A stretch of DNA of 63,996 nt, counting the filler, from Folioceros fuciformis (lineage: Eukaryota): assembly GCA_049999805.1 (NCBI GenBank). It is 4 parts of 3 records of this genome, joined end to end, with 100 filler letters (N's around TTAATTAATTAA, not from the genome) between each part and the next. Parts side by side here need not be neighbours in the genome. Positions count along the whole stretch, not along the records: positions 15,690 to 37,060 come from JBNGIO010006150.1; 3 more parts are not named here. One strand, 5' to 3'. The translations under genes were made by a program, and so were the position numbers. Shown one piece after another: positions 10,330 to 52,786 of the stretch. The notes below the pieces were generated by a model. The model saw nothing but the letters and a program-made list of their open reading frames with translations, did no database searches and was not told where the DNA came from. The first letter of the stretch is position 1; each line of letters opens with the position of its first letter.

Positions 10330-11150
10330 CTCTGCCCGTTTTGAACAGTTCTTGAGCTGGTGTGGAGAACATAGTTTTGCAATATCGGGAAAGCTGGCCA
10401 TTGTGGAGAGCAATGTGGAGGGAAAGCGAGAGGTAATTACTGATGACAGCAGGAGAGTGCGAGGAGTTGTTGCTGTTGAGGATATCTCACATGGTGACAC
10501 ATTATCGCCTTTACCTGTGAGGCATCATTCTGTTTGCTTTGCCGGATAGGCAGAATGAGTTTTGGCGAGGTGTGTAAGATGTTTGGTCAGGTCCGGATGT
10601 AGAATTTGTTCCAAGACGTGCCACTGTAATGTAAAACATCAAACTAAGGCTAATTTTGAGAGGGTTGCAGGCGCATTGGCCGTCTGAACCGGCTTGGCAT
10701 GGTAAGCTCGATATAGTTGCCAGACGGCCTTTGAGAAAGGGGGAGCAGCTTTTTGCATCGTTGGGACAAGGGTCAAACGACAATATGTTTCTCTGCCACG
10801 GTGACTGATACTCGTGTTTGCGCAACCGGTCGTTTACGCGGTAGAGGAAATCATTCGTGAGTAGTTCCTGTGGGTTTTTGCTTTTCCAGGTTCTGTGCTT
10901 GAAGATAATCCTCAAGGGACACAGCTCGTCTTTCCCAGTCTTCTGAGGTTGGCACAACATGACACCAGACAAGATGAAAGGAGGCCAGCTCGGTCCTTGG
11001 TAGTCAGAGGGTGGCCGGTCTGCTCCTTGAAGCTCTGAAAAGCGAATGCCACGGCCGTGTCGTGCAAGAGAGCGTAAGGTGGTTTTTGCAGCTTTGGAGT
11101 ACGAGTTACGGACAAGCGCTCAAGAGTCAATCAACCGGCATCGACCACAT
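10330..11150 (+). pseudogene. Decayed SET-domain protein of the Rubisco LSMT / SETD3-4 class
   Basis: FEQFLSWCGEHSF...RGVVAVEDISHGDTLSPLP matches the N-SET pattern. DIVARRPLRKGEQLFASLGQGSNDNMFLCHG at 10710-10802 matches the C-SET GEQ.F.SYG..N pattern. The central NH motif region is missing and the frame is broken. Confidence 0.6.
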
Positions 11151-11714
11151 GCAGCGGGCAACAATGGCACACAATATGGTCAAAGTCAGTCAAACCACAT
11201 GTGGGTAGGCATCGCTGTCGGTTATTCATGACAGAGCAAGGAATGGGTGCACCTTATCAATGACTGGGCAGATTTTGGATTCCAATTTCTGCCATGCAGT
11301 CCGTGTTCCATCAATCTATGAAGAAGCGAAGCCGACAGCACACACGAAGTGAGGGATGCTGTGAGAGCACAGTAGCGATGAGGAGCAATGACAAAAGAGG
11401 CACAACGGTCAAAAGGAGGCTGAGGCAGTGTAACCACGAAAGAGGTACAGCAGAATCGAGGTGTGTCTTTGCACCCCTTAAATGCTATGGAGCACGGTGC
11501 GCACTGTCCTGCAAATCCCGGAGCACATCTATATGTGGTATCCTCCCTAAACTTCAGCTGGTGAATTGCACCGTGATTGAGGGCGTCATCGGCAGCTGGA
11601 AAATCTCCTCCAACACTCCCACTCAGCGTAGATGATGAAATGCGGGAGTGTCAATGCCCAAACCCGCATGAGTCCCGGTCAATGGTTTGCCTCTTGTGAG
11701 GCGCTGGGTTGTCC

Positions 11715-14323
11715 TCAACGTGCCATGACGCTCTTTCCCAAGGCCCTTTGTGAGGATATTGGCTAACATGTTTTCGGTGCTGCAAAACTTCAACTCCACC
11801 TCTGTCCCGAGGCGCTCTCGGATGAAGTGAAATCGGATGATTGGATGTCGATATGTTTGGTTCTCTTGTGATGTTCCAGATTCTTGGCCAGGGCCATGCT
11901 GCTCTGGTTGTCGGTGTAGATGATTGTGGCCCCATCTCCATCATAGCCCAAACTTCCCAGCAAGTACCTAAGCCATATGGATTCCTTGGTTGCTTCCGAT
12001 TCTGTTGTGGAGGTGGCCACACATGGCTGCCTGGTGGATGACCAGCTCATGGGCGAGCCTCCTAGCAGGAAAACCATACCGGTGGTTGAGCGGTGGTCGT
12101 CCAAGCTCCCTCCGTAGTCTGCATCACTATAACCCTCCAGAGTTGTGGGTTGGGAATTTCCTCGCCTTCCACCAAGGCATAGGCTGTACTCCTTGGTCCC
12201 TTGCAAGTGGCGAAGGATCCTCTTGACACAAGTCCAATGCTGCGTCCCGAGGTTTGCGGAGAACTTGGTCACTAATCGTGCTGCGTAAGCGATGTCAGGT
12301 CTCAATCTTTAGGGCGTACAAGAGTTTCCCCACCGCCTTTTCGTAGAGTGGCTTGGAGATGGTGTCTCCTTCAGCCTTGTTGCCCTCGGCCTTCCGCACC
12401 AGTCGTGTTCCCAACTCGAGTGGTGTTGTCACTGCCTTACAGTCTACCATGTGAAGCTCCTCCAAAGTTTTCTTGATGTATGTGTGCTCTGGTCCAACGA
12501 CAACATCTTGTTTGGTCAATCGCGGGTGATCTCACTTCTACTACGAAATCGGCTTCTCCGAGATCAACGATCTCGAAGGCCTGGCACAACTCCCACTTAA
12601 CCTGGCGCATCAAGGTAAGGGAATTGCTGATAATTAGTAGATTGTCAACGTATACGGCAATCCACACCCGCGAGTCTCCGTCTCTAAGCATGTATACTCC
12701 GTGATCCTCCTCGCTGTGTTTGAAGCCTAGAGCCTTTAGGAGAGTGTTGAGCTTGAAGTACCACCTTTGTGCGGCCTGCTTCAAGCCGTAAAGAGCCTTC
12801 CTCAACTTGCAGACCAGGTGCTCTTTCCCACGCCGTTGAGGAAAGCGTTGCAGACGTCCATGTGATAGATCTCCATGTCTTCGATTGCTGCCAATGCAAG
12901 CGTGCATCGGCTTGATGTGAAGTTTACGATAGGTGAGAATGTCTCGCTGTAGTCCTCCCCATAATGTTGGTCGTAGACCTTTGCCACCAATCGTGCTTTG
13001 TACCGCTCGATGCTCCCGTCTCCCTTGTGCTTCAGCTTGAAAGTCCACTTGCTGCCGATTGGCCTTCGTCCGGGAGGGAGCTCGGTTGAGTCCCAAGTTC
13101 TGTTCTTGATCAGCGCATCGTACTCGGTGTGTATGGCCTTCAACCATTTCTCCCTATCTTCTGTTTCCAAAGCCTCCTTCAAGGTTGAGGGCTCTTCCTC
13201 CACCGTGCACTTCAAAGCCGAGTCCATGCTTTCCAGCATCTTTAAGGACGGCTTCCAAGATCGACTCTACCGTTCTATGGCCAAGCTTGTGTTGGCGGGT
13301 TGTGTAGCCTGACCGTGCTGTTCTCTTGTGCTTTTGCTGGTGTGAGGTGCAACTTCTCTGTGGGTATCCCCGTCGCGAGGGTCCTCTTCATCACTCTGGT
13401 AATCCCCTAGGATCGATGTGTCTGGCTCTCCTCCGGTCTCCAGGTGTGCTCATCTTGCGTGATCTCTTGTTGGTACGAGGTTGATGTGCTCCGATGGGTT
13501 CCCTTCGAGCGTGCTTTGTGGTAGTTCCCTGCTTGGTAAGAGTGATGGGGGCTGCAATTCTCCTGGTTGTGTTCCCCGTTCATCGAAGATGACATCTTTG
13601 CTCCGAATGATCCGCTTGGTCCGTGGGTTGTACGGTCAGTATGCCATGTTGTCTGGGCAATAGCCGAGAAAGATACATTCGATGGACTTGGCATCCATCT
13701 TGCTCCGTTCATCTCTCGGAATGTGTACGTACGCCTTGCAGCCAAAGACCCTCAAATGCCTCACGAATGGCTTGTGCCGTGTCCACGCTTCTTCTGGGGT
13801 GATGCCTTGGTCCTTCAATGCTTTTGTCGGGCTGCGATTCCAAACGTATGCCACTGTTGTAACTGCTTCTGCCCGGAATTGATCATGTAGCTTCCGAGCG
13901 TGCAACATGCTCGATGATTGTCCGATGCATCCTCTCCGCAATAGAGATTTGTTCCGATCGGGCGGCGATTTGATGTTGAATCCCGTGTTCTGCCAGGTAT
14001 CCTTTGAATGCTTTCGACGTGTACTCTCCACCGCCATCATGGTCTCCTAGGTGCCCAAATCTCTCATGCCACAATTGAACTGATTCGTTTGCAGCCTTGG
14101 TTTTGGCTAGGTTGGCCCTTTCTCTTGCAAGTTTTTCCTCGCTCTTGCTCTTGGTCTCATGAGTGCTGCAAGATAGCTGGTATAGGTTGTCATCCCCAAG
14201 GGTGGGTTCGGCAACTGTATCGCTGCGTAGGTCCTTGATGACGCAACTTGACCCCTTGAATGCCACTTCCAAGCCTACAGCACTGAGCCTACGCACAGAT
14301 AGTAAACTTTTGGTGAGCCCTGG
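11715..14323 (-). mobile_element. Degenerate Ty1/copia pol (GAG-pre-integrase, partial integrase, RT, RNase H)
   Basis: PGLTKSLLSV, LWHERFGHLG, DGGGEYTS, LRVFGCKAYVH, RYKARLVAK, HMDV.NAFLNG, LRKALYGLKQA, YVDNL, YSDADYG, RTKHIDI, ANILTKGL in copia domain order. Multiple frameshifts and deletions. Confidence 0.95.
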
Positions 14324-15510
14324 TGTGGAGGCAAAACCCCGGGCACTGATTGCCAACGGGTTCCACCTTTAGTGGCCACACTTATCCCACTGTCGTTGAG
14401 ACATTGGGTTTCGTTCCCACGAAGGAGCGATGGGGTTCCTTGCTGCTGTGGATGGAGGGTCGGGCTTGATCGACTCGATGATGGATTCGAGGGCTCCCCT
14501 CCAGCTCCGATCAGGCGTAGAACAGGCCTCGCTGTCCGGCGGTCAGCTGCACCTCTCTCGGTGCCCACAAACTCACTCCAGTCACTACAACGACCCTAAC
14601 CTCTTAGATCTGCGACTTCCCTCACTCACTTCACTCACTCTCTCACTCCAGCACCAACACCAGCAACTAACAATGACACCACTACCTTCTACACTTCCCT
14701 ACTGACTCCTCCTACCCAGCAAGAGTCACTAGACTAACCCCAAAGAAAAGAAAGAAGGGAACACACTCCCCTCTTGGATATCTCCTCCCCACAACCTTAC
14801 CAGATGCCATGAGACATGGCCGGCCTATACAGCACTTGTCCAAGCAAGGAACAAGAGTGGACAGGTCGAGAGAAAGACACATCCTTTACAATCAAGAGCT
14901 AGGGGCAAGCCCCTTCACCCTGGTCATTACACCTTGTGATCCTATCAGACACTATACAACCGGCAACATGCTGCCCGCAATCCTACCAGACACTGTACAG
15001 CCGGTAACATGCTACCTGCGATCCTACCAGACACTATACAGCCGGCAACACACGGCTTGCGATCCTACCAGATGTTGCACAGCCGGCAACACACTGCAGG
15101 TCCTAAACCGAGCAGGGACAGACCACAAAAGCTCATGAAGAGAGGACCTCCAAGAGCTCACGAAGGGATAGACTGACTCCCAAAGTGAATGACTCCCTCC
15201 TCCTATAGGCTCACCTGATCTTATAGGAGCCTCTCTCTCTCTCTCTGACTTCACCTCTCTCTAACTTGAGAAATATTATTTTAAAAGGACCACTAGCCTA
15301 GCCGGCTATCACCAGCCACTTATTTAGACTTCTAGCACATCCTGCCACCAATGAGCTCCTGGCCCTACCACCACAAGGATCTACCACCTCTTAGACTATC
15401 CTGAGACTTCGGAGGATGTCTGATCTTCAAAGATATGCGGACGTCGCCTCTTCCTTGCTGGATGGCCGCCCGCTAAGTCTTCCCCTGCAATTGTTCACCC
15501 TTGGTGGCTG
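14324..15510 (-). mobile_element. LTR-like repeat, family A copy 2, abutting and truncating the copia pol
   Basis: Reverse complement of 2839-3838. Its minus-strand end ...GCCTCCACA joins directly to copia codons CCA GGG CTC (PGL). Carries an extra 41-bp x4 tandem at 14938-15100. Confidence 0.75.
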
Positions 15511-15589: not shown

Positions 15590-15689
15590 NNNNNNNNNNN
15601 NNNNNNNNNNNNNNNNNNNNNNNNNNNNNNNNNTTAATTAATTAANNNNNNNNNNNNNNNNNNNNNNNNNNNNNNNNNNNNNNNNNNNN
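15590..15689. other. Artificial contig-join spacer (N44 TTAATTAATTAA N44)
   Basis: Six-frame-stop linker at 15634-15645 inside a 100-nt N block; the same structure occurs at 37061-37160 and 52687-52786. Confidence 0.97.
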
Positions 15690-16292: not shown

Positions 16293-17966
16293 ATGGAAGG
16301 GAATGCCTTGTCTGAACTCCCGTACTTGGACAAAGAGGAGTGCGGCGATTTCTTCAGAATGACAGCTTCAATGAGCACGGATGGCAGGCATTCGCGAGTG
16401 CGCAGGTGGGTATTAATAACTATCGGCCAATGCTGCAGTGTCCGCAGCGGCCTGTACATCCATAAGGATTGGGGGATTGGCATCGCTCGGTAGGATGAAT
16501 GCGCGGTTCTGTTGGGGGGCCTGGCATCCAACCCTTCCTTGGACTCTCTTGATCTGTATCAGTGCAAAGGTTTTCGAAGGCTGGCGGGTTGCAAGACCTT
16601 GGGCCAGCGTATTGCTTCTAGTCGCAGCTTGCGACCGCTGGAGGCAATCGAGATTGGGCTTGATGCCGCTAGACTTTGTGCTCTGGTCGATGGCTTGAAC
16701 CAAGATTTTGTCCTAGAGTATTTGAACCTAAGCGACAACAGAGTGGGTGATGGTGAAGAGGCACAACACTTGGCTCGCATGCTTGTTTCGGATAAAGTGG
16801 CCCTCTTTCATAAAAGCGTTGGCGTAGTCTTTGGAGAAAACTACATCTTTGAATGAGCTCAACATTCCGGAATGTGCCGGACTCGACAATGAGCTGTTCA
16901 GAGGGTTGATGTAGTTCCTCCAAGTGAACACCACGTTACAGAAGATCGACATAAGGGGTACAAACTAGGATAATGAGGGAAAGGGGTATATCATCAAGGT
17001 GACGTTGGCACGCAATGTTACTCACAGGGCCTATTGGCCTTTGTTTTTGGAGGGGCAAGAGGCTGTACAGCCCATGGTCGGGCGCCTTTTGTTCTGCGGT
17101 GCGCCTTACGCAGGGAAGACCACTGTCCGCACCACCATCATCACTGCATGGTGCGCATCACTCAACTTGTCGCTTCTTGTCCGCCTCCGGGAACAACTGC
17201 CTTTAGCTCAAGGATGGATACGTTCCTGCAGCCATTTCAGAACTGTCAGCAGAACTGAAGGCATAGAGATGGAGGTGTTGCGCAACGACCATGAGATGGA
17301 AGTTACCATCTGGGATCTGGCTGGACAAGCTCGTTTTCGAGCTCTGCAAGACTACTTGTTCCCCAGCTTCAACCAAACATGTGTCTTCCTGTTCACATTC
17401 AACCCATTTGATGCCTGCAAGCCTAGTGGACCCCTCCCGTCTACTGAAATGCTGTTGAACAAGTTTACAAACAGCTTCAAGTTTTGGCTTAAATTCATCC
17501 ACTCTAATTCTCGCAACGTGGGTTCCTGTTTGCCTCGTGTATTTGTGGTTGTCACTCATAAGGATCAGATGGAGGATCTGTACGCTAAACTACTAGTTGG
17601 TCTGCTGCAACCAGTCGTGGAAGAGTTGGCCAAGGCTTTTGAGGAGGTACTTCTTATCAGGACAATGCCTTTCTTCATGGATGCTCGATCTAAATAGATT
17701 GTGCAGCCTTTGCTGGAGCAGCTATTCCAATCATTTAAAGAGCTATTTGCGCTTCCTTTGTTTTGGGTCCCGGAGGCATGCAACTGATTCAGTGCTGTTT
17801 TGACTCATCGGGTATCTCGAAATCCAACTCAGCCTATTGTGACCAAGAAGCACTGCAAAAACCTGTTTAACGTGCAAGATGAGCAACGCCTTCAAGCAAT
17901 TCTTGCCTATCTGCACAACGCAGGCCAGGTCATCTGGTTTCAAGATGCAGATGGTGTGGTGGTGAT
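16293..17966 (+). pseudogene. TORNADO1-like Roco protein (RI-type LRRs, ROC GTPase, start of COR), pseudogenised and truncated by an LTR insertion
   Basis: LRRs LDSLDLYQC, LEYLNLSDNRVGD and NTTLQKIDIRGT. P-loop RLLFCGAPYAGKTT, switch RTEGIE, G3 IWDLAGQ, G4 VVTHKD, COR LAYLHNAGQVIWF. In-frame stops at 16912, 17695 and 17785, plus a frameshift near 16780-16840. Confidence 0.85.
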
Positions 17967-19722
17967 TGTGAGGAAGCACAAGCATGGGTGGAGCATGAAC
18001 CCGTGATGGACCTCAGTAACAGGCGATTGGAAGGAGGGTCCAAAAACCCGTGATGGACCTCAGTAACAAGCGATTGGAAGGAGGGTCCAAGAACCCATGA
18101 TGAACCTCAGTTTCAGGCGACTGGAGGGAGGGTCCTCCGTAACAGGCGACTGGAGGGAAGAAGGAGAACCCCTTGGTGGGCCCCACCCACGCCTCTGCTG
18201 GAAAGATCAAGTAGCAGCAGTGAGATAGAAACCCTGTGGGAGGATCTGCCTGACCAAAGGAGAGGAAGGAGGGCTCGAGGTTTTGGCAGGCGAGGGAGAG
18301 AAGTGCGACGACCCGACAGAGGCGAGCGTGGCGATAGGATAGGCTAGAGTTATTGCATCTTATAATAGTATACTGTAGGATCTGGAGAAGATGCTTTCTT
18401 GGACCTAATGCCGCTCGCAATTAAGAGCGCCTACCTGTCCGCAGACTAAACTTAATGGTGGCTGCGGACCCGCCACTGTGTACAAGAGGCTTGTTGGCAC
18501 CTCACTAAGTAGCAAGAAATTGGCATTCCGACCTGTGGGAGCCTTGCGACAAACCCTGCCAGATAGAGGGATCCGGGCAAGAGAGTGCGTGCAGTGGCAG
18601 GAGAGTGCGTGCGGGGGAAGGAGTTGGGGCGATTTCTCTGCTCCACATCGAGTGGTGTTAGGGACGAATCGGTGGAGATTCCCACCGAGCAAAAGGTGAA
18701 CTTCCCTTATTCCTGAGAACATTCGTTGTGCGCTGCAATAGGAAGTGAAGCGGGACGAATCCGCCAACCTGCGAAGAAGAGGGGGAAACTCTCCTTCCCT
18801 TATTCCCTGGATCGACTGAATTGTGGTTTGCGGTTGAGGTGAGAGAGACGAATCCGCCCGTGAGCGGAGTGGAAGAAGGGGCGCCTGCTTCCCTTATTCC
18901 TTGACTCTTCAAGTGCATTTCGAATTCATTGTCAAGAAGTGAGTGAATGTGGAGACTGACTATGTGTTGTGGTTGAGGAGAGGGGAACGAATCCGCCCAC
19001 AGTGCGGAGTGGAGGGAGATTTTCTCCTTCCCTTATTCCCCAACTGTCAGTTGCAACTTAGTCTTAGTAGTGGAGTGTGTGAGTGAAGGGTGAGTGTGTA
19101 AGAAGGAGAAGGGTGAAGGAGGGAGTGAGTTGAGAATGGTGGTGAGCGGAACAAATCCGCCAGCTGCGTGGAGTGGAAGCAGAACTGCTATTTCCCTTAT
19201 TCCCTGAACTGTTGACTGTGGTTCGTAAGCTAAGGAGAGGGGGACGAATCCGCCCACTGCGCGGAGTGGAGGGAGAGTGTCTCCTTCCCTTATTCCCTGA
19301 ACCGTTGGTTGCGGACGAGTGAGCTGAGAGATCGGGAGGTTAAGAAAGATTGTTGGGGCTTGGACGTGGTTGCCGGAGAGTTTCTAAGGGATTCTTGGAC
19401 ATTTGTGGAGAACTATTGACGATTGTGGAAGCTTGTAAGGAGTTGTGAAGGGCTGCTGAGAAATCACTAGGGATTTGTGGACGTTGTTGGAGGGTTGGAG
19501 ACATTTGGGAGCAGGCCTGTGAGAAATAACTATATACCAGAGTTCTGGTGTGCTATGCATGTGTTGCGAGTGCTATGTGGGTGTGAGCGTGAGGTGTAGC
19601 TGCCCCGCGGGACCTGGTTGTCCAAGAGTGGTATTTGTAGGTGTGAAAGGTGTTCAATAAACCCCGACCTGTGAGTCTGGGGGCTCTAGGTAGAAACCCG
19701 CGGTGGCACTTGCGCCAGCACA
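17967..19722 (+). mobile_element. LTR-like element, family B (TGTG...CACA, ~1.76 kb)
   Basis: The COR reading frame stops resembling COR at TGTGAGG (17967). Contains a ~46-bp tandem x3 (17997-18160), a structured 6x array, TATATA at about 19532 and AATAAA at 19656. The 3' end AGGTAGAAACCCG..GCCAGCACA resembles the family A terminus. Confidence 0.6.
18661..19297 (+). repeat. Array of six ~55-nt structured motifs GGGACGAA-[hairpin]-GT-[hairpin]-CTTATTCCC with diverged linkers
   Basis: Units at 18661, 18752, 18845, 18982, 19146 and 19241. Linkers of 37, 37, 80, 104 and 36 nt. Stems differ in sequence but keep pairing. Confidence 0.85.
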
Positions 19723-19737
19723 AATTAGTAAGGGGTT

Positions 19738-20150
19738 CGTGGGACCCACCACGGTCGTGGAACCCACCCCGATCGTGGAACCCACCCCGATCGTGGAACC
19801 CACCCCGATCGTGGAACCCACCCCGATCGTGGAACCCACCCCGATCGTGGANNNNNNNNNNNNNNNNNNNNNNNNNNNNNNNNNNNNNNNNNNNNNNNNN
19901 NNNNNNNNNNNNNNNNNNNNNNNNNNNNNNNNNNNNNNNNNNNNNNNNNNNTCGTGGATCCTCCTACCGGTCGTGGAACCCACCCTGGTCGTGGATCCTC
20001 CTACCGATCGTGGAACCCACCCCGGTCGTGGATCCTCCTACCGGTCGTGGAACCCACCCTGGTCGTGGATCCTCCTACCGATCGTGGAACCCACCCCGGT
20101 CGTGGATCCTCCTACCGGTCGTGGAACCCAATCCGGTTGTGGAAGCTACC
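19738..20150. repeat. 18-bp minisatellite (CGTGGAACCCACCCCGAT) with a 36-bp higher-order variant
   Basis: Near-perfect tandem units either side of an N gap; after the gap they alternate with CGTGGATCCTCCTACCGGT. Confidence 0.95.
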
Positions 20151-22400: not shown

Positions 22401-23226
22401 TTGCGTCTGTCTATAGAGAACCCCTCATAAAATAAATAGATTAATTTATAATAATAATAAATAATTTGAAAGAAAAAACATGATGTATCCATTGAAGCTG
22501 GGGGAGCAAGGGGGAGGGAGCTAAACTATGATCGGGAGCAAAGAATACGTGTGATAAAATGGTATACAGTATAAGGAAGTATGTACTGTACTAAAAAGTT
22601 TCATCCTCAGAGAACACGCACTATTACGCTGGACGACTCTGACGAGGAAGACTTGTTGACCGAGCGCACATTTGGGTGTACGCGCTAATGGCCGTGAAGG
22701 TTCGCGGAGTAAAGCTTGGGAGGGAGCAGCAGCACAGGCCTGGACGAGCTGTGGTGCTGGGAGGAAAGAGCAGCCGTGTAAAGTGCTCTCAGCTTCTGCC
22801 CGACTCAACGTCAAGCGCTTTGATTAAAGTGTTTCGGGACAGGAAGTTGTTGGGTTGTCTCGCCCGACCTGGCTCTTTTGTTGCTGGGAGAAAGAATGGG
22901 GTCTGGGGCGGCACGGCTCGGGGGTGCCGCAGTTTCGTAGCTTTTAGTACTCAATGTCTTAGCTGAAGGAGCAGCGGGCAGAAGGAATCGGGTTAGATGT
23001 CCATGGTGAGCTGAAGGGAGAGAATGAGCTTCTTCGTTGTCGGGAGGGAGTCCTGGTGGCTCTGATGTAAGAACCGGGTTGTTTCTCGTGGAGCTCAGCA
23101 CCTTCAAGTCCTGCTCCGACGAGGACAGCTGCAATTGAAGTGTAAGTGGTATTCGAGTGCAAGCCCTTGCTGTTGCAGTTGTGTGTGCCGCTGGGCGGGG
23201 GTGTGGTGCGGGAAAGGAGGGGCAGG

Positions 23227-26200
23227 ATGGCGGATGGGAGGGACGTGCCGTCGCAAGTGTTTGAAAACATGAGTCGGAGGGTTGCTATGTTAGCACGGAA
23301 GACAAGGAATGTGACCTCGGATAAGGCCCTGCCTGCCAGCCAGGTGTTGGGGTACCATGCCGGCCGGCTGGATCAGTTGGCGTTGCTGCTGAGGGAAGTG
23401 CAGAGGGAGGTGGAGTTGGGTAACGTGGAGGTGTCTGGGCTGGATTTGAGTGCAATGGAGGCCGAGCTGATGGCGGAGGAGAAGCTGATGGAGTTTTATG
23501 GCAGCAAGAGGAGTTTATACCTTGTTGTAGCGTGCCCTTATCTCATCAAGCACTTGCGCAATTCTGCTTTCATTTTGAGTCAGGGCATGGGGGTGATTGA
23601 GCAGAACGGTTGCCCTCCCGATTTGGAGCACGAGCTGACTCAGTTGCGGAAGATTTTTGAGGAGGAAGCTCCCAAGCTGAGGACCAGAGAGCAGCAGATC
23701 GTTGATTACTTGGAGACAGGTGTTTTGGACACGGTTGTCCACCACGATTCTCAGAGTACGAAGCTCGCTGAGCAGATTGCGGAGTGCATGGGGCTGTCTC
23801 TTGATAGTGACGCGTTCAAGGATGAGCTGGCGAAGTTTCAGGAGGAGAAAGGGACAGCGGAACAAATGGAGGGGAAAGTGCATGTGTTGATCCTGGATCA
23901 GTACATCAATCTGTTGGAGAGGGCTGTGGCCGACAAGTCTAATCCTGCGACACCTGTGCGTCAGGGGCCTCCCAGCAAATCTGTGACGACCATGAAGGAG
24001 ACACCGTTTCTCCCTCTCCAGTCCTTCGTATGCCCTATCACCAAGGAGGTGATGCGGGATCCCGTGCAGATTTCCTCTGGCCAGACTTATGAGAGATCTG
24101 CCATAGAGCGCTGGTTTGCAGCTGGTCACAATAGATGTCCGTTAGGAGTAGAGCTGAAGAACACCAAGGTGAAATCTAATTTTGCGCTGCGCCAATCGAT
24201 TGCAGAGTGGCGTGAGAGAAATTGGAACATCAGGATGCAGAGTGCGGAAGTGGGCTTGTCTTCAGAAGACTCGGAGGACAAGCTTAAGGCTCTGGTAGAC
24301 TTGCAAGTGCTGTGTGATGAGGACTCGCTGAACAGGTACTCCATATCAAAGAACGGGCTCCTTCCTCCACTAGTGCGTCTGCTGGAGTGCAAGAACGTGG
24401 AATTGAGGATCAAAACCTTGTCTACGCTCAGAAGCTTGGCGCAGGACAATTGTGAAAATCAGGTGCCGACTTATCAGCTGTCAGGGCTCTGTGTGCAGTT
24501 TCCTTTCACATTTATTATGCGGCCAGGATTCATCTTCTGTTATGTGGATTTCTGCAGTTTCTCATGGTCAGAGAAGGAGTCATAGACCTCATTGTTCGCT
24601 GCCTTGCTCGTCAGTATGATGAATCAAAAGAAGCAATCCTATTGCTGCGAGTGTTGTCAGCTAGCCCTGCATTTGCAGAGCTGATAAGCCGTTCCCAGGG
24701 TGCGGTGACGCTTGTGGTGACTATGCTAGGCTCCGAGGAGGGTGATATCATTGACGGTGTGAAGAGCATTCTTGAGAACCTGCCGCCCAGTGATGATAAT
24801 GTTATCATTATGGCGAGAGCCAACTACATGACACCTCTCATTTCTCGGCTCATAGATGGTACGCCCTTCAAGTCGTCACTCATCTTTTTCCCAGTCGTGC
24901 CACAGTTTCATGTGAAGCTCTGGACATTGGTGCAAGTATGACGTATTTAGTTCAGGTTTTGTGTTGTTGTTTGCTTGGTACGCAGGAAAGACTGATTCGA
25001 AGATTCTGATGGCAAGGACTCTTGCTCGTCTCCATATCCCTCACACGAGCAAGCAAAACCTAGCAACAGGAGAGGCAATCTCAACTCTGATACAAATGAT
25101 GGCATCGGCAAAGCCCGAAGAAAGTGAGAGTGCTATCAGCGCTTTGGGAAGTTTATCCTCTGTTCCCGTTGTTGCCAACCTGCTTGTGGATGGTGGCGCC
25201 CTGCACATATTGAAGAACAAGTTATCAATTCCAAGGTCAACAGTGGAAACAAAAACCGGCGTCGCCCATATTGTGAAGAACATTCTTGAGGCATGGGGCA
25301 GTAACTTGCCAGACAATGAAGGCAGCGAGGCAGAACTGGATGGAATGATTTACACTTGTCTCTCCTTGTTGAAGCCTTTAACTCCTGCGACGGTTCAGCA
25401 CTATCTCTTGATGGCTTTAGTTGGCCTGGCTCGTGGGAAACGATCTCGCAGAATTGCTAGGAAAAAGATGATCGAGCATCAAGCTTTTGCTACGTTGATG
25501 CCTCTGGTCAAAGCTGAAGCTTCCTCAGAGATGCGTACTTCTGCCTTGCAACTGTTTGCTAGCCTGTCGCGGAGCTTCAGTTCTGAAGCTGGGGCGGCTG
25601 TGGGTGAGGACGAAGCCAGCATGTCGTCCTTCGTGGATGCGATGCTAAGGGATCTGGGGCGCCATGGTGAGGAACAATTGTCGGCGGCAAGAATTCTAGC
25701 TAACTTGCCCACGGACACTGGCTTTACATCTGCTCTTGTCCAAGCGGATGTTGCGCGAATATTGGTAAAGCTACTGGGCTCTAGTAATTCTGCGTTGGAG
25801 GAAGCAGTGTCGGGGGCGCTTCTGCGATTTACTCTACCGAATGACACAGAAATGCAGCGGAAACTGGCAAGCCTTGGTGTCATCCCAAAGTTGCTGTCTG
25901 TTTTGGATTCAGGCAAGAGTGCAGCAAAAGCAAAGGCAAGTAGAGCACTCGCCAACTTCTCTGAAAATTCGAATGCTCTGAGTGAGGTTGTTGCGTCCCC
26001 GAAGTGGTGGGCCTGCTTTGCCCCCGTCCAAGAAAAATGTCGCCTGCATGGAGGCATCTGCTCAGTGGAGGGTACCTTTTGCTTGCTGGAAGCCAACGCT
26101 GTCAACCCTCTTCTTTCAGTCTTGAAAGATAAGGATCAAGATGCATGCGAAGCAGCGCTGGCAGCATTGGACACTCTGGCAAACGGGTACAACAGACACT

Positions 26201-26484
26201 GGGAACAGGGAGTCCGTCTGATCGCCAACGCTAAAGGAGTACCCCCAATATTGGAAATCCTAAGCTCTGGTTCTCCTGCCGCTCAGGAATGTGCTCTCAA
26301 CCTTGTCGAGAAGGTATTCTCGATCTCAGAATACAAGGATGGGTATGGGACATCAGCTCAGATGCGCATCATCACCGTGGCTCAACAAGGTCCTCCTCAC
26401 TTGAGGAATCTTGCTGGGAGGATATTGAGGCAACTTGACCTTCTACATAGCCAATCCAATTACTTCGCTCCATCAGTTGGGTAG
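23227..26484 (+). CDS. U-box/ARM-repeat E3 ubiquitin ligase, SAUL1/PUB43-44 type; exons 23227-24462, 24558-24858, 24986-26484
   Basis: U-box FVCPITKEVMRDPVQISSGQTYERSAIERWF, multiple ARM repeats and the diagnostic CRLHGGICSVEGTFCLLEANAV. Two GT-AG introns join the three ORFs in frame. Confidence 0.93.
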
Positions 26485-37060: not shown

Positions 37061-37160
37061 NNNNNNNNNNNNNNNNNNNNNNNNNNNNNNNNNNNNNNNN
37101 NNNNTTAATTAATTAANNNNNNNNNNNNNNNNNNNNNNNNNNNNNNNNNNNNNNNNNNNN
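37061..37160. other. Artificial contig-join spacer
   Basis: N44 TTAATTAATTAA N44. Confidence 0.97.
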
Positions 37161-48027: not shown

Positions 48028-48099
48028 GGTCTCAAAGTCTAGTGGTTAGGACTCTGAACTCTAAATCTAGTACCCCGAGCTCGAATCTCGGTTGGACCT
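48028..48099 (+). pseudogene. tRNA-Gln-derived pseudo-tRNA with CTA (amber) anticodon
   Basis: 72-nt paralogue of 48372-48443. Loop CT-CTA-AA. Mismatches in the acceptor and anticodon stems, GCTCGA instead of GTTCRA, and no oligo-T terminator. Confidence 0.85.
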
Positions 48100-48371
48100 G
48101 TATCAGATCTTTTGAAATAACGTCTCAAGCTGACAGGTTAAGCTGGTTCAAGGAACATCGTTCTCAAGCAGGCAATCTGAACTCCTGAAGCAGCAGAAAC
48201 GGAGAGGAAACATGACGGGATGCAAGAAAAGAAGTCCTTAAGCCAGGCAGTTTGAGCTCCTACGGGACAGTAAAAACGGTGAGATATGATAGGATGCAAG
48301 TAGAAACGGTTTGTAGTTCACCATTTGTAATAATAGTTATATTTAATAAAATTACGGTTGTTGGTGTACAT

Positions 48372-48443
48372 GGTCCTATAGTCTAGTGGTTAGGACACTG
48401 GACTCTGAATCCAGTAGCCCGAGTTCAAATCTCGGTGGGACCT
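48372..48443 (+). tRNA. tRNA-Gln(CTG)
   Basis: Cloverleaf: acceptor GGTCCTA/TGGGACC, D-loop TAGTGG, anticodon arm CTGGA-CTCTGAA-TCCAG, T-arm CCGAG-TTCAAAT-CTCGG, followed by a short T run. Confidence 0.97.
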
Positions 48444-52686: not shown

Positions 52687-52786
52687 NNNNNNNNNNNNNN
52701 NNNNNNNNNNNNNNNNNNNNNNNNNNNNNNTTAATTAATTAANNNNNNNNNNNNNNNNNNNNNNNNNNNNNNNNNNNNNNNNNNNN
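52687..52786. other. Artificial contig-join spacer
   Basis: N44 TTAATTAATTAA N44. Confidence 0.97.

Follow-up and report, generated by a model that had tools for sequence, protein, structure and literature searches.

Six related units in a tandem-repeat block of Folioceros fuciformis: conserved cores of a decayed, high-copy repeat and candidate dyad-symmetric cis-elements

The DNA analysed here, referred to below as the window, is a stretch of 63,996 nucleotides (nt) from the genome of Folioceros fuciformis (assembly GCA_049999805.1), and our subject is an array of six short units in the part of it that derives from record JBNGIO010006150.1. An earlier note on this DNA had described the array as copies of a covarying three-way-junction RNA motif lying inside a long terminal repeat (LTR), and had put forward a new structured RNA or a ribozyme-like element. 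Six units with the layout given there (GGGA(A)-CGAA-stem A-GU-stem B-CUUA-UUCCC) were indeed located, all on the + strand, each 56-61 nt long and all within 18661-19300. In the analysis they turned out to be the conserved core regions of a tandem repeat, now decayed, that has a period of ~92 nt and belongs to a high-copy family. The evidence for this assignment is given first, followed by the folding evidence, the genomic context and an evaluation of what the units may do.

The string CCCTTATTCC occurs six times in the 63996-nt window, every time on the + strand between 18704 and 19287, and nowhere else. Likewise, a covariance model built from the six units matched only these six when both strands of the window were searched (56-92 bits, the next match reaching 12.5 bits). 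The junction residues proved as nearly invariant as had been claimed: CUUAUUCC is present in all six units, CGAAU in five (unit 5 has CAAAU) and GAGU in four. The junctions are the best conserved parts of the unit and the loops the worst, with mean pairwise identities of 1.00 for J3/1, 0.92 for J1/2, 0.67-0.87 for the stems, 0.35-0.50 for the flanks and 0.12-0.24 for the loops. Mean column identity across units is 74% and 25 of the 79 columns are invariant; twelve invariant columns are consecutive, a run with a chance of ~5e-6 if the 25 were placed at random. Four boxes can be recognised in the unit. One is a pyrimidine box of 12 nt that never varies (TTCCCTTATTCC); the others are the box ACGAATC, a palindrome and a box in the linker. 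The palindromic box reads TCCGC-N6/7-GCGGA in units 3, 4 and 6, with one G-U in unit 5 and one mismatch in unit 2. In unit 1 it is TCGGTGG-N6-CCACCGA; the reported switch of stem A to UCGGUGG/CCACCGA is thus present, and the stem still pairs. The invariant 12-mer is free of G and offers neither a CpG nor a CHG site. The CpG-containing sequence ACGAATCCG is kept in four of the six units; unit 1 has ACGAATCGG in its place, with the CCG position altered and a CpG remaining, and unit 5 has ACAAATCCG, in which the ACG CpG is lost.

The units differ in how completely they retain this layout. Unit 1 (18661-18716, 56.2 bits against the model) combines GGGA-CGAAU, the stem A variant and CUUAUUCC with a weak stem B, and its hairpin resembles an 18-nt repeat found downstream. 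Stem A of unit 2 (18752-18809, 72.7 bits) has only 3 bp plus a C-A mismatch, and its stem B has 8 bp that include G-U pairs. In unit 3 (18845-18903, 76.4 bits) the 5' strand of helix P1 is GAGA and the helix is broken; stem A is intact, and stem B shows an A/G mismatch and one change from A-U to G-C. Unit 4 (18983-19043, 86.3 bits) has a complete three-way junction and is the sole unit predicted to keep it with its natural flanks. In unit 5 (19147-19207, 77.4 bits) CAAAU replaces CGAAU, stem A includes a G-U, and stem B is broken in register, with an alternative AGCA/UGCU pairing. Unit 6 (19240-19300, 92 bits) is nearest to the commonest genomic form; it is predicted to fold into the junction in isolation and into another, long hairpin together with its own linker.

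Unit starts are separated by 91, 93, 138, 164 and 93 nt, which gives a basic period of ~92 nt. Units 5 and 6 with the linker between them align to units 2 and 3 with theirs at 73% over 160 nt, and the linkers are therefore homologous. The claim that loops and linkers diverge accordingly holds for the loops, but is too simple for the linkers. A linker box, GACTG..TGTGGTYCG, recurs in the linkers of the window and in other genomic copies. Combined, the homologous linkers and the recurring box identify the object as a decayed tandem repeat of ~92 nt that extends over 18622-19320 on the + strand, with insertions in the linkers between units 3 and 4 and between units 4 and 5. Tandem Repeats Finder (TRF) did not report the array in the window, because the copies are too diverged and carry insertions and deletions. 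To follow the family in the genome, contigs of three DNA runs from the same organism (X1, X2 and X3) were aligned to 18150-19720. Contigs with at least 80% likeness over this interval numbered 358 in X1, 325 in X2 and 89 in the third DNA run. Those with at least 99% numbered 22 in X1 and 19 in X2, and the majority lay below 95% (X1 contigs by likeness band: 22/35/107/194). Many contig joints skip or repeat units, for example by returning from 19302 to 19237 across 21-27 other letters (a period of ~90 nt); the letters inserted at these joints repeat the linker box in the form GACTG(A)TTGTGGTCCGT, which is also seen in the linkers of the window. A T for G at 19279, in the loop of stem B, was found in 39 contigs of X1 and 43 of X2. 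Homologous units, spacers included, are hence arranged head to tail, and many copies of them exist in the genome.

Three further observations were made on the sequencing runs. In units 4 and 6 the 3' half seems to have a higher contig depth than the 5' half; this was left unused, since contig depth cannot rank parts. Nearly all differences between the X3 contigs and the window are C>T (104 places) or G>A (28 places), which is the pattern of a bisulfite-type library, and many cytosines of the repeat block read as T in this run. In a further run, presumed to be RNA (X4), one 185-nt contig touched 19263-19303, and no inference is drawn from it.

The array forms part of a ~2.2-kb block that consists entirely of short tandem repeats, and every one of these repeats has a dyad-symmetric box of its own. 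First in the block is a 47-nt repeat (17998-18167, +; 2.9 copies according to TRF, and a fourth partial copy in a repeat search) with a GGACC..GGTCC dyad in each unit. A 20-nt repeat of 2.5 copies (18575-18623, +) lies directly upstream of unit 1. On the other side of the array, 18-nt and 37-nt repeats of the TCGTGGAACCCACCCCGA type (19737-20144, +), with a GTGG..CCAC dyad and related to the unit 1 hairpin, stand on both sides of a 100-N assembly gap (19852-19951). A variant of these repeats, GGACCCAC, may resemble the site of plant TCP factors, GGNCCCAC. Between the array and these repeats are a TATA-like box, CTATATA (19530-19536, +), 230 nt past the last unit, and the hexamer AATAAA, similar to a polyadenylation signal (19656-19661, +), both being sequence matches only. 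The succession of array, TATA-like box and AATAAA would correspond to that of a U3-R region, as far as likeness of sequence can indicate. The CpG observed/expected ratio is 0.83-0.88 in three of the four 200-nt bins overlapping the array and 0.37 in the fourth (19000-19199), for a window-wide value of 0.63. The 47-nt repeat begins exactly at the end of a ROCO-like reading frame (..GWSMNP, stop at 18006). This decayed ROCO-like (LRR-Roc) gene (16494-18006, +) consists of a weak LRR region (16494-16856), a Roc/Ras-like GTPase piece (16969-17697) and a COR-like tail (17788-18006); its pieces occupy three different frames, and the gene is therefore probably either a pseudogene or split by the repeat block.

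The three-way junction was evaluated on the six units, both in isolation and in their context. RNAalifold returned the junction as the consensus fold, with 19 pairs, the covariation term contributing only -0.36 of the -12.52 kcal/mol. When units were folded in isolation, the junction was the minimum-energy fold in four of the six (units 1, 2, 4 and 6), and units 3 and 5 lacked P1. The z-scores of the isolated units 1-6 were -1.16, -0.54, -0.92, -2.29, +0.11 and -1.82 on the + strand and -0.87, +0.57, -1.75, -1.31, +0.08 and -1.07 on the - strand. For the whole array, z was -3.95 on the + strand (only 20 shuffles) and -1.77 on the - strand. Across the alignment 103 of the 111 cells (92.8%) pair on the + strand, compared with 87.1% in shuffles, and 93 of 111 pair on the - strand. 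When the 3' partner was slid by 1-3 columns, 54-68% of the cells still paired. These slid controls indicate that P1 and stem B pair in many registers because purine tracts face one pyrimidine tract. The invariant run lies in the pyrimidine strand and its purine partners vary, which argues for a constraint on the sequence of the box and not on the pair. Changes on both sides were found at 5 of the 19 pairs: the ragged end of P1 accounts for two of these, unit 1 for a further two and unit 3 for one. When all 9 bp of stem B are counted, two double changes disrupt their pair. A neutral simulation on a star phylogeny gave 91.2 +/- 3.0 paired cells against the 103 observed, with an excess on both strands; the simulation is crude, and its outcome for the strands depends on the assumed ancestor and on taking stem B at its full 9 bp.

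A predominance of G-U pairs on the + strand had been read as a sign of selection on + strand RNA. The count stood, with 15 G-U cells on the + strand and 5 on the - strand, but the strand preference read from it is not robust: nine of the 15 cells correspond to two P1 positions common to four or five units, and the preference flips with the assumptions made. The G-richness of the + strand (GC skew of +0.215 at 18001-20000) also favours G-U pairs on it. The natural context also affects the predicted fold. With 10 more nt on each side, only unit 4 had its three helices at 0.9 or above, and unit 6 fell to 0.02; in the ensemble of the 681-nt whole array, the probability of P1 was at most 0.01 in all six units. 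Folded with its own linker, unit 6 is predicted to form a long hairpin in which the upstream purine tract pairs with the pyrimidine tract (-39.8 kcal/mol), and unit 4 keeps the junction. According to these predictions, most units favour a fold other than the junction when their natural flanks are included.

The stem A of unit 1, which seemed the clearest case of covariation, was compared with the 18-nt repeat located 1 kb downstream. The two share 15 matches over 19 aligned positions of unit 1, a score reached by 41 of 5000 shuffles. None of the other five hairpins stood out in the same comparison (their scores were reached by 193-1688 of 2000 shuffles). Because only the hairpin of unit 1 resembles this palindromic repeat, its stem looks, from the sequences compared, as if one palindromic box of the block had replaced another, rather than as the product of stepwise compensation. 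More generally, purine/pyrimidine tracts and swaps between neighbouring palindromic repeats can mimic covariation when few related copies are compared.

Searches for known families and for relatives were carried out on the window and in external collections. As far as Rfam shows, the element is undescribed, as had been supposed: over the whole window only two matches to Rfam 15 attained the gathering threshold, both to tRNA at 48028-48443. In the array region, seven matches were obtained at E up to 10, all at chance level and none to a ribozyme, the best reaching 17.4 bits for a threshold of 40; no hammerhead, twister, twister-sister, pistol, hatchet, HDV-like or other ribozyme family was matched there. 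The hammerhead core motif CUGANGA has no match on either strand at 18600-19350, in agreement with the earlier note, and the idea of a ribozyme that the note had nonetheless entertained is left without support. A pattern derived from the units was then used to scan contigs of other origins. It gave one match in viral contigs, not unit-like between the anchors, and 21 loci in metagenome contigs with one match each, none of them unit-like between the anchors; both counts are close to the chance number estimated beforehand by hand. No match was found in contigs of prokaryote genomes. In the literature, the best-ranked 10 of 152 papers with the string CCCTTATTCC all looked unrelated (sequence strings, e.g. 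blaTEM and vectors). The ACGAATCC box resembles a tRNA T-loop; a tRNA-derived origin was considered and rejected, no tRNA match being found in the array even at E up to 10.

The placement of the array inside an LTR was not borne out: the window contains no second copy of the array, and no TG..CA ends with a convincing target-site duplication. Seven candidates for TG..CA ends with a 4-6-nt duplication were found, none of them convincing, the best having flanks of 4-5 nt and weak terminal inverted repeats. TGGTAT at 19629 shows only a partial likeness to a primer-binding site for initiator tRNA-Met. Fragments of a Copia element lie at 10511-14368 on the - strand: 12437-13153 matches RVT_2 (E 1.3e-23), and 13883-14368 matches gag/pre-integrase weakly. 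Nothing was found to connect them with the array.

Other features of the window, which has the look of nuclear scaffold DNA from a green-lineage eukaryote, lie further from the array. A gene of the plant type with a U-box and Armadillo repeats (PUB-like), read in two long open frames, occupies 23146-26484 on the + strand. Among named proteins, the best relative of the Armadillo protein comes from an angiosperm and is 31% identical, and a Logan protein is 57% identical; because the nearest named relative is so distant, the host lineage appears poorly represented in protein databases. The tRNA region at 48028-48443 (+; sites 48028-48099 and 48372-48443) contains a tRNA-Gln(CTG), which scores 71 bits in Rfam and is called by ARAGORN. 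The tRNA-like copy 344 nt upstream of it, 85% identical, with 39.7 bits in Rfam and uncalled by ARAGORN, is probably a decaying duplicate. The window includes twelve runs of N of fixed sizes (10 N, pairs of 44 N, and 100 N), among them 15590-15689, 37061-37160 and 52687-52786; a 36-copy repeat family (D1) was discarded as an artefact of these runs.

What the units do has to be judged from these observations. By analogy with the repeated motifs of Sirevirus elements, we give an even chance to the reading in which the units are multimerised dyad-symmetric cis-elements that belong to a mobile element's non-coding region and whose action, if any, would be at the level of DNA. It starts from what was observed, namely the repeat nature of the units, their abundance, their uneven conservation, their dyad symmetries and the lack of an Rfam match; a mobile-element context, an action at the DNA level and protein binding are what it would add. 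The block would be the non-coding, regulatory (U3-like) part of a mobile element, and the boxes of the unit would be bound by proteins of the host or of the element, as proposed for the palindromic motifs of Sirevirus LTRs. The three-way junction would be a by-product of two inherited dyads placed beside purine tracts that face a pyrimidine tract and pair readily in any register. The excess of retained pairs is present on both strands and therefore fits what is expected of DNA dyads, and nothing tested points specifically to RNA or to the + strand. Several points weigh against the cis-element reading. We know of no protein that binds such units. A model of DNA half-sites alone does not predict the double changes that are kept (A-U to G-C in unit 3, and the stem of unit 1 if it arose in place). 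The lower conservation of loops relative to linkers and the unaided recovery of the junction by RNAalifold are just as compatible with an RNA reading. The window yielded neither an LTR pair nor a primer-binding site, polypurine tract/LTR junction or target-site duplication, so that the mobile-element context has to be argued from abundance and architecture only. No transposon protein domain adjoins the block, the nearest being the Copia reverse-transcriptase fragment, on the other strand and ~5.5 kb off. Finally, the core CGG-CCG that is the signature of the repeated motif (RM) boxes of Sirevirus (Ty1/copia) in Bousios et al. 2010 (PMC2829016) has its order, CGG..CCG, only in unit 1; the other five of the six units have CCG..CGG. 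If the cis-element reading is true, the array is one more case of mobile elements multiplying dyad-symmetric cis-elements, which would be unsurprising, and it would be useful for repeat annotation in an under-studied green lineage.

The most serious alternative, which we nevertheless hold to be unlikely, is an undescribed structured RNA of the + strand: a three-way junction with the core CGAAU / AGU / CUUAU, multimerised in the transcript of a mobile element and bound by protein (for packaging, as a protein sponge or for nuclear retention). That the junction is both the minimum-energy fold of four isolated units and the RNAalifold consensus, that junction residues are the most and loops the least conserved, and that paired cells exceed the shuffled, slid and neutral values all speak for it, as do the surplus of G-U cells on the + strand, the lower whole-array z-score on that strand (from only 20 shuffles) and the lack of an Rfam match. 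However, the structure was derived from the same six related sequences on which it is judged, the covariation term is small and the strand preference is not robust. The z-scores of the units are modest, P1 is missing from units 3 and 5, and the junction is mostly displaced once flanks or the whole array are included. The stem of unit 1 may be a box swap, the full 9-bp stem B includes two pair-breaking double changes, and the linker is conserved as well, so that conservation extends beyond the fold. In its broader form, a new class of structured RNA with a junction of ~58 nt, arranged in tandem in a high-copy mobile element and serving as a + strand protein-binding or packaging module or, less likely, as a self-cleaving motif, the proposal is improbable too. 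If an RNA reading is true, the units would represent a new structured RNA family specific to a mobile element of the plant lineage, with an unusually clear junction core, and the abundance of the family would make covariation analysis and structure probing directly feasible. Self-cleavage as the function of the whole array, whether hammerhead-like or of a new class, as in plant retrozymes and Penelope-like elements, is in our view very improbable. The three-way topology, the conserved junction strands and the tandem arrangement in a repeat-rich, possibly mobile context would suit it, but the absence of CUGANGA and of any ribozyme family match in the array region does not; moreover, the junction strands of 4-5, 2-3 and 4-5 nt misfit the hammerhead core and the loops carry no conserved tertiary contacts.

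A reading without any selection was also considered, in which the array is a functionless minisatellite whose dyads and boxes result from descent, uneven mutation and template-switch correction of quasi-palindromes. The irregular spacing with insertions, the mean column identity of 74%, the broken pairs in units 2, 3 and 5 and the variation of unit number among genomic copies are what such a repeat would show, and an invariant 12-mer devoid of G and CpG is in keeping with it. We judge it doubtful, since twelve invariant columns in a row are very unlikely under even decay, the CpG-containing ACGAATCCG is still present in four of the six units, and pairs are kept above the neutral simulation. 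Finally, a decayed protein-coding repeat was examined, as 93 nt correspond to 31 codons and a single relative frame is open through units 4, 5 and 6 (..RIRPxxGVEGxxLLPLFP..). Although the spacings of 93, 93 and 138 nt are divisible by three and a + strand open reading frame (ORF) at 19146-19322 spans two units, those of 91 and 164 nt disrupt the reading frame, the frames open in units 2 and 3 are different ones, and the conserved box is invariant at all three codon positions. Of the - strand ORFs that cross the array, the two longest (18405-18893 and 18658-19032) gave no matches in Pfam, and for the + strand ORF, searched as 19146-19319, no homologue was obtained at E 0.001 or better among proteins of 31-102 amino acids. 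With the frame not kept and no homologues, this explanation was rejected and is close to excluded, being the least credible of all.

We return to the cis-element reading and compare the array with systems already described. Hammerheads occur in plant retrozymes and Penelope-like elements; their core consists of CUGANGA, GAAA and UH, and its junction strands measure 7, 4 and 1 nt. The array resembles these in being made of small three-helix junctions arranged in tandem, in a repeat-rich and possibly retroelement context, and differs from them in lacking the catalytic core and in junction strands whose lengths do not fit. Packaging or dimerisation signals of retroviruses and LTR retrotransposons are multi-hairpin structures present as single copies in the 5' leader. 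As in these signals, stems vary here and short single-stranded motifs are fixed, which would fit an RNA reading; unlike them, the units form a six-fold tandem array, and no leader context (primer-binding site, gag) was found in the window. Macas and co-workers are said to have reported in 2009 that tandem repeats in non-coding regions of plant LTR retrotransposons can seed satellites. The present block shares with such repeats the juxtaposition of several unrelated short arrays and a copy number that varies between family members. Its unit, which combines two dyads with invariant boxes, has a more elaborate internal structure than a simple satellite monomer.

The comparison closest to the reading that we favour is with Sirevirus. 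The LTRs of these elements carry 8-32 palindromic repeated motifs upstream of the TATA box, such as TCGGTCYCACCGA and AGGGCGGCAGTGCCGCCCT, for which Bousios et al. 2010 (PMC2829016) proposed, but did not test, a cis-regulatory role. The array does not belong to the Sirevirus RM family, as five of its six units lack the CGG..CCG order and no Sirevirus context was found in the window; the Copia reverse-transcriptase fragment of the window (12437-13153, -) showed no link to the array. The array has six copies, whereas RM boxes number at least 8 per element and cluster in the LTR's upper half, ahead of the TATA box. Furthermore, the palindrome is here one part of a 92-bp repeat that also includes a second inverted repeat, the invariant pyrimidine box and the linker box. 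With the RM boxes the array has in common many short, dyad-symmetric, CpG-containing boxes per element, their clustering in a non-coding region upstream of a TATA box (here the TATA-like match) and a likeness of 66-100% between boxes. In addition, the arms of the unit 1 palindrome, TCGGT..ACCGA, are those of the 'Barbara' motif of Sirevirus, TCGGTCYCACCGA.

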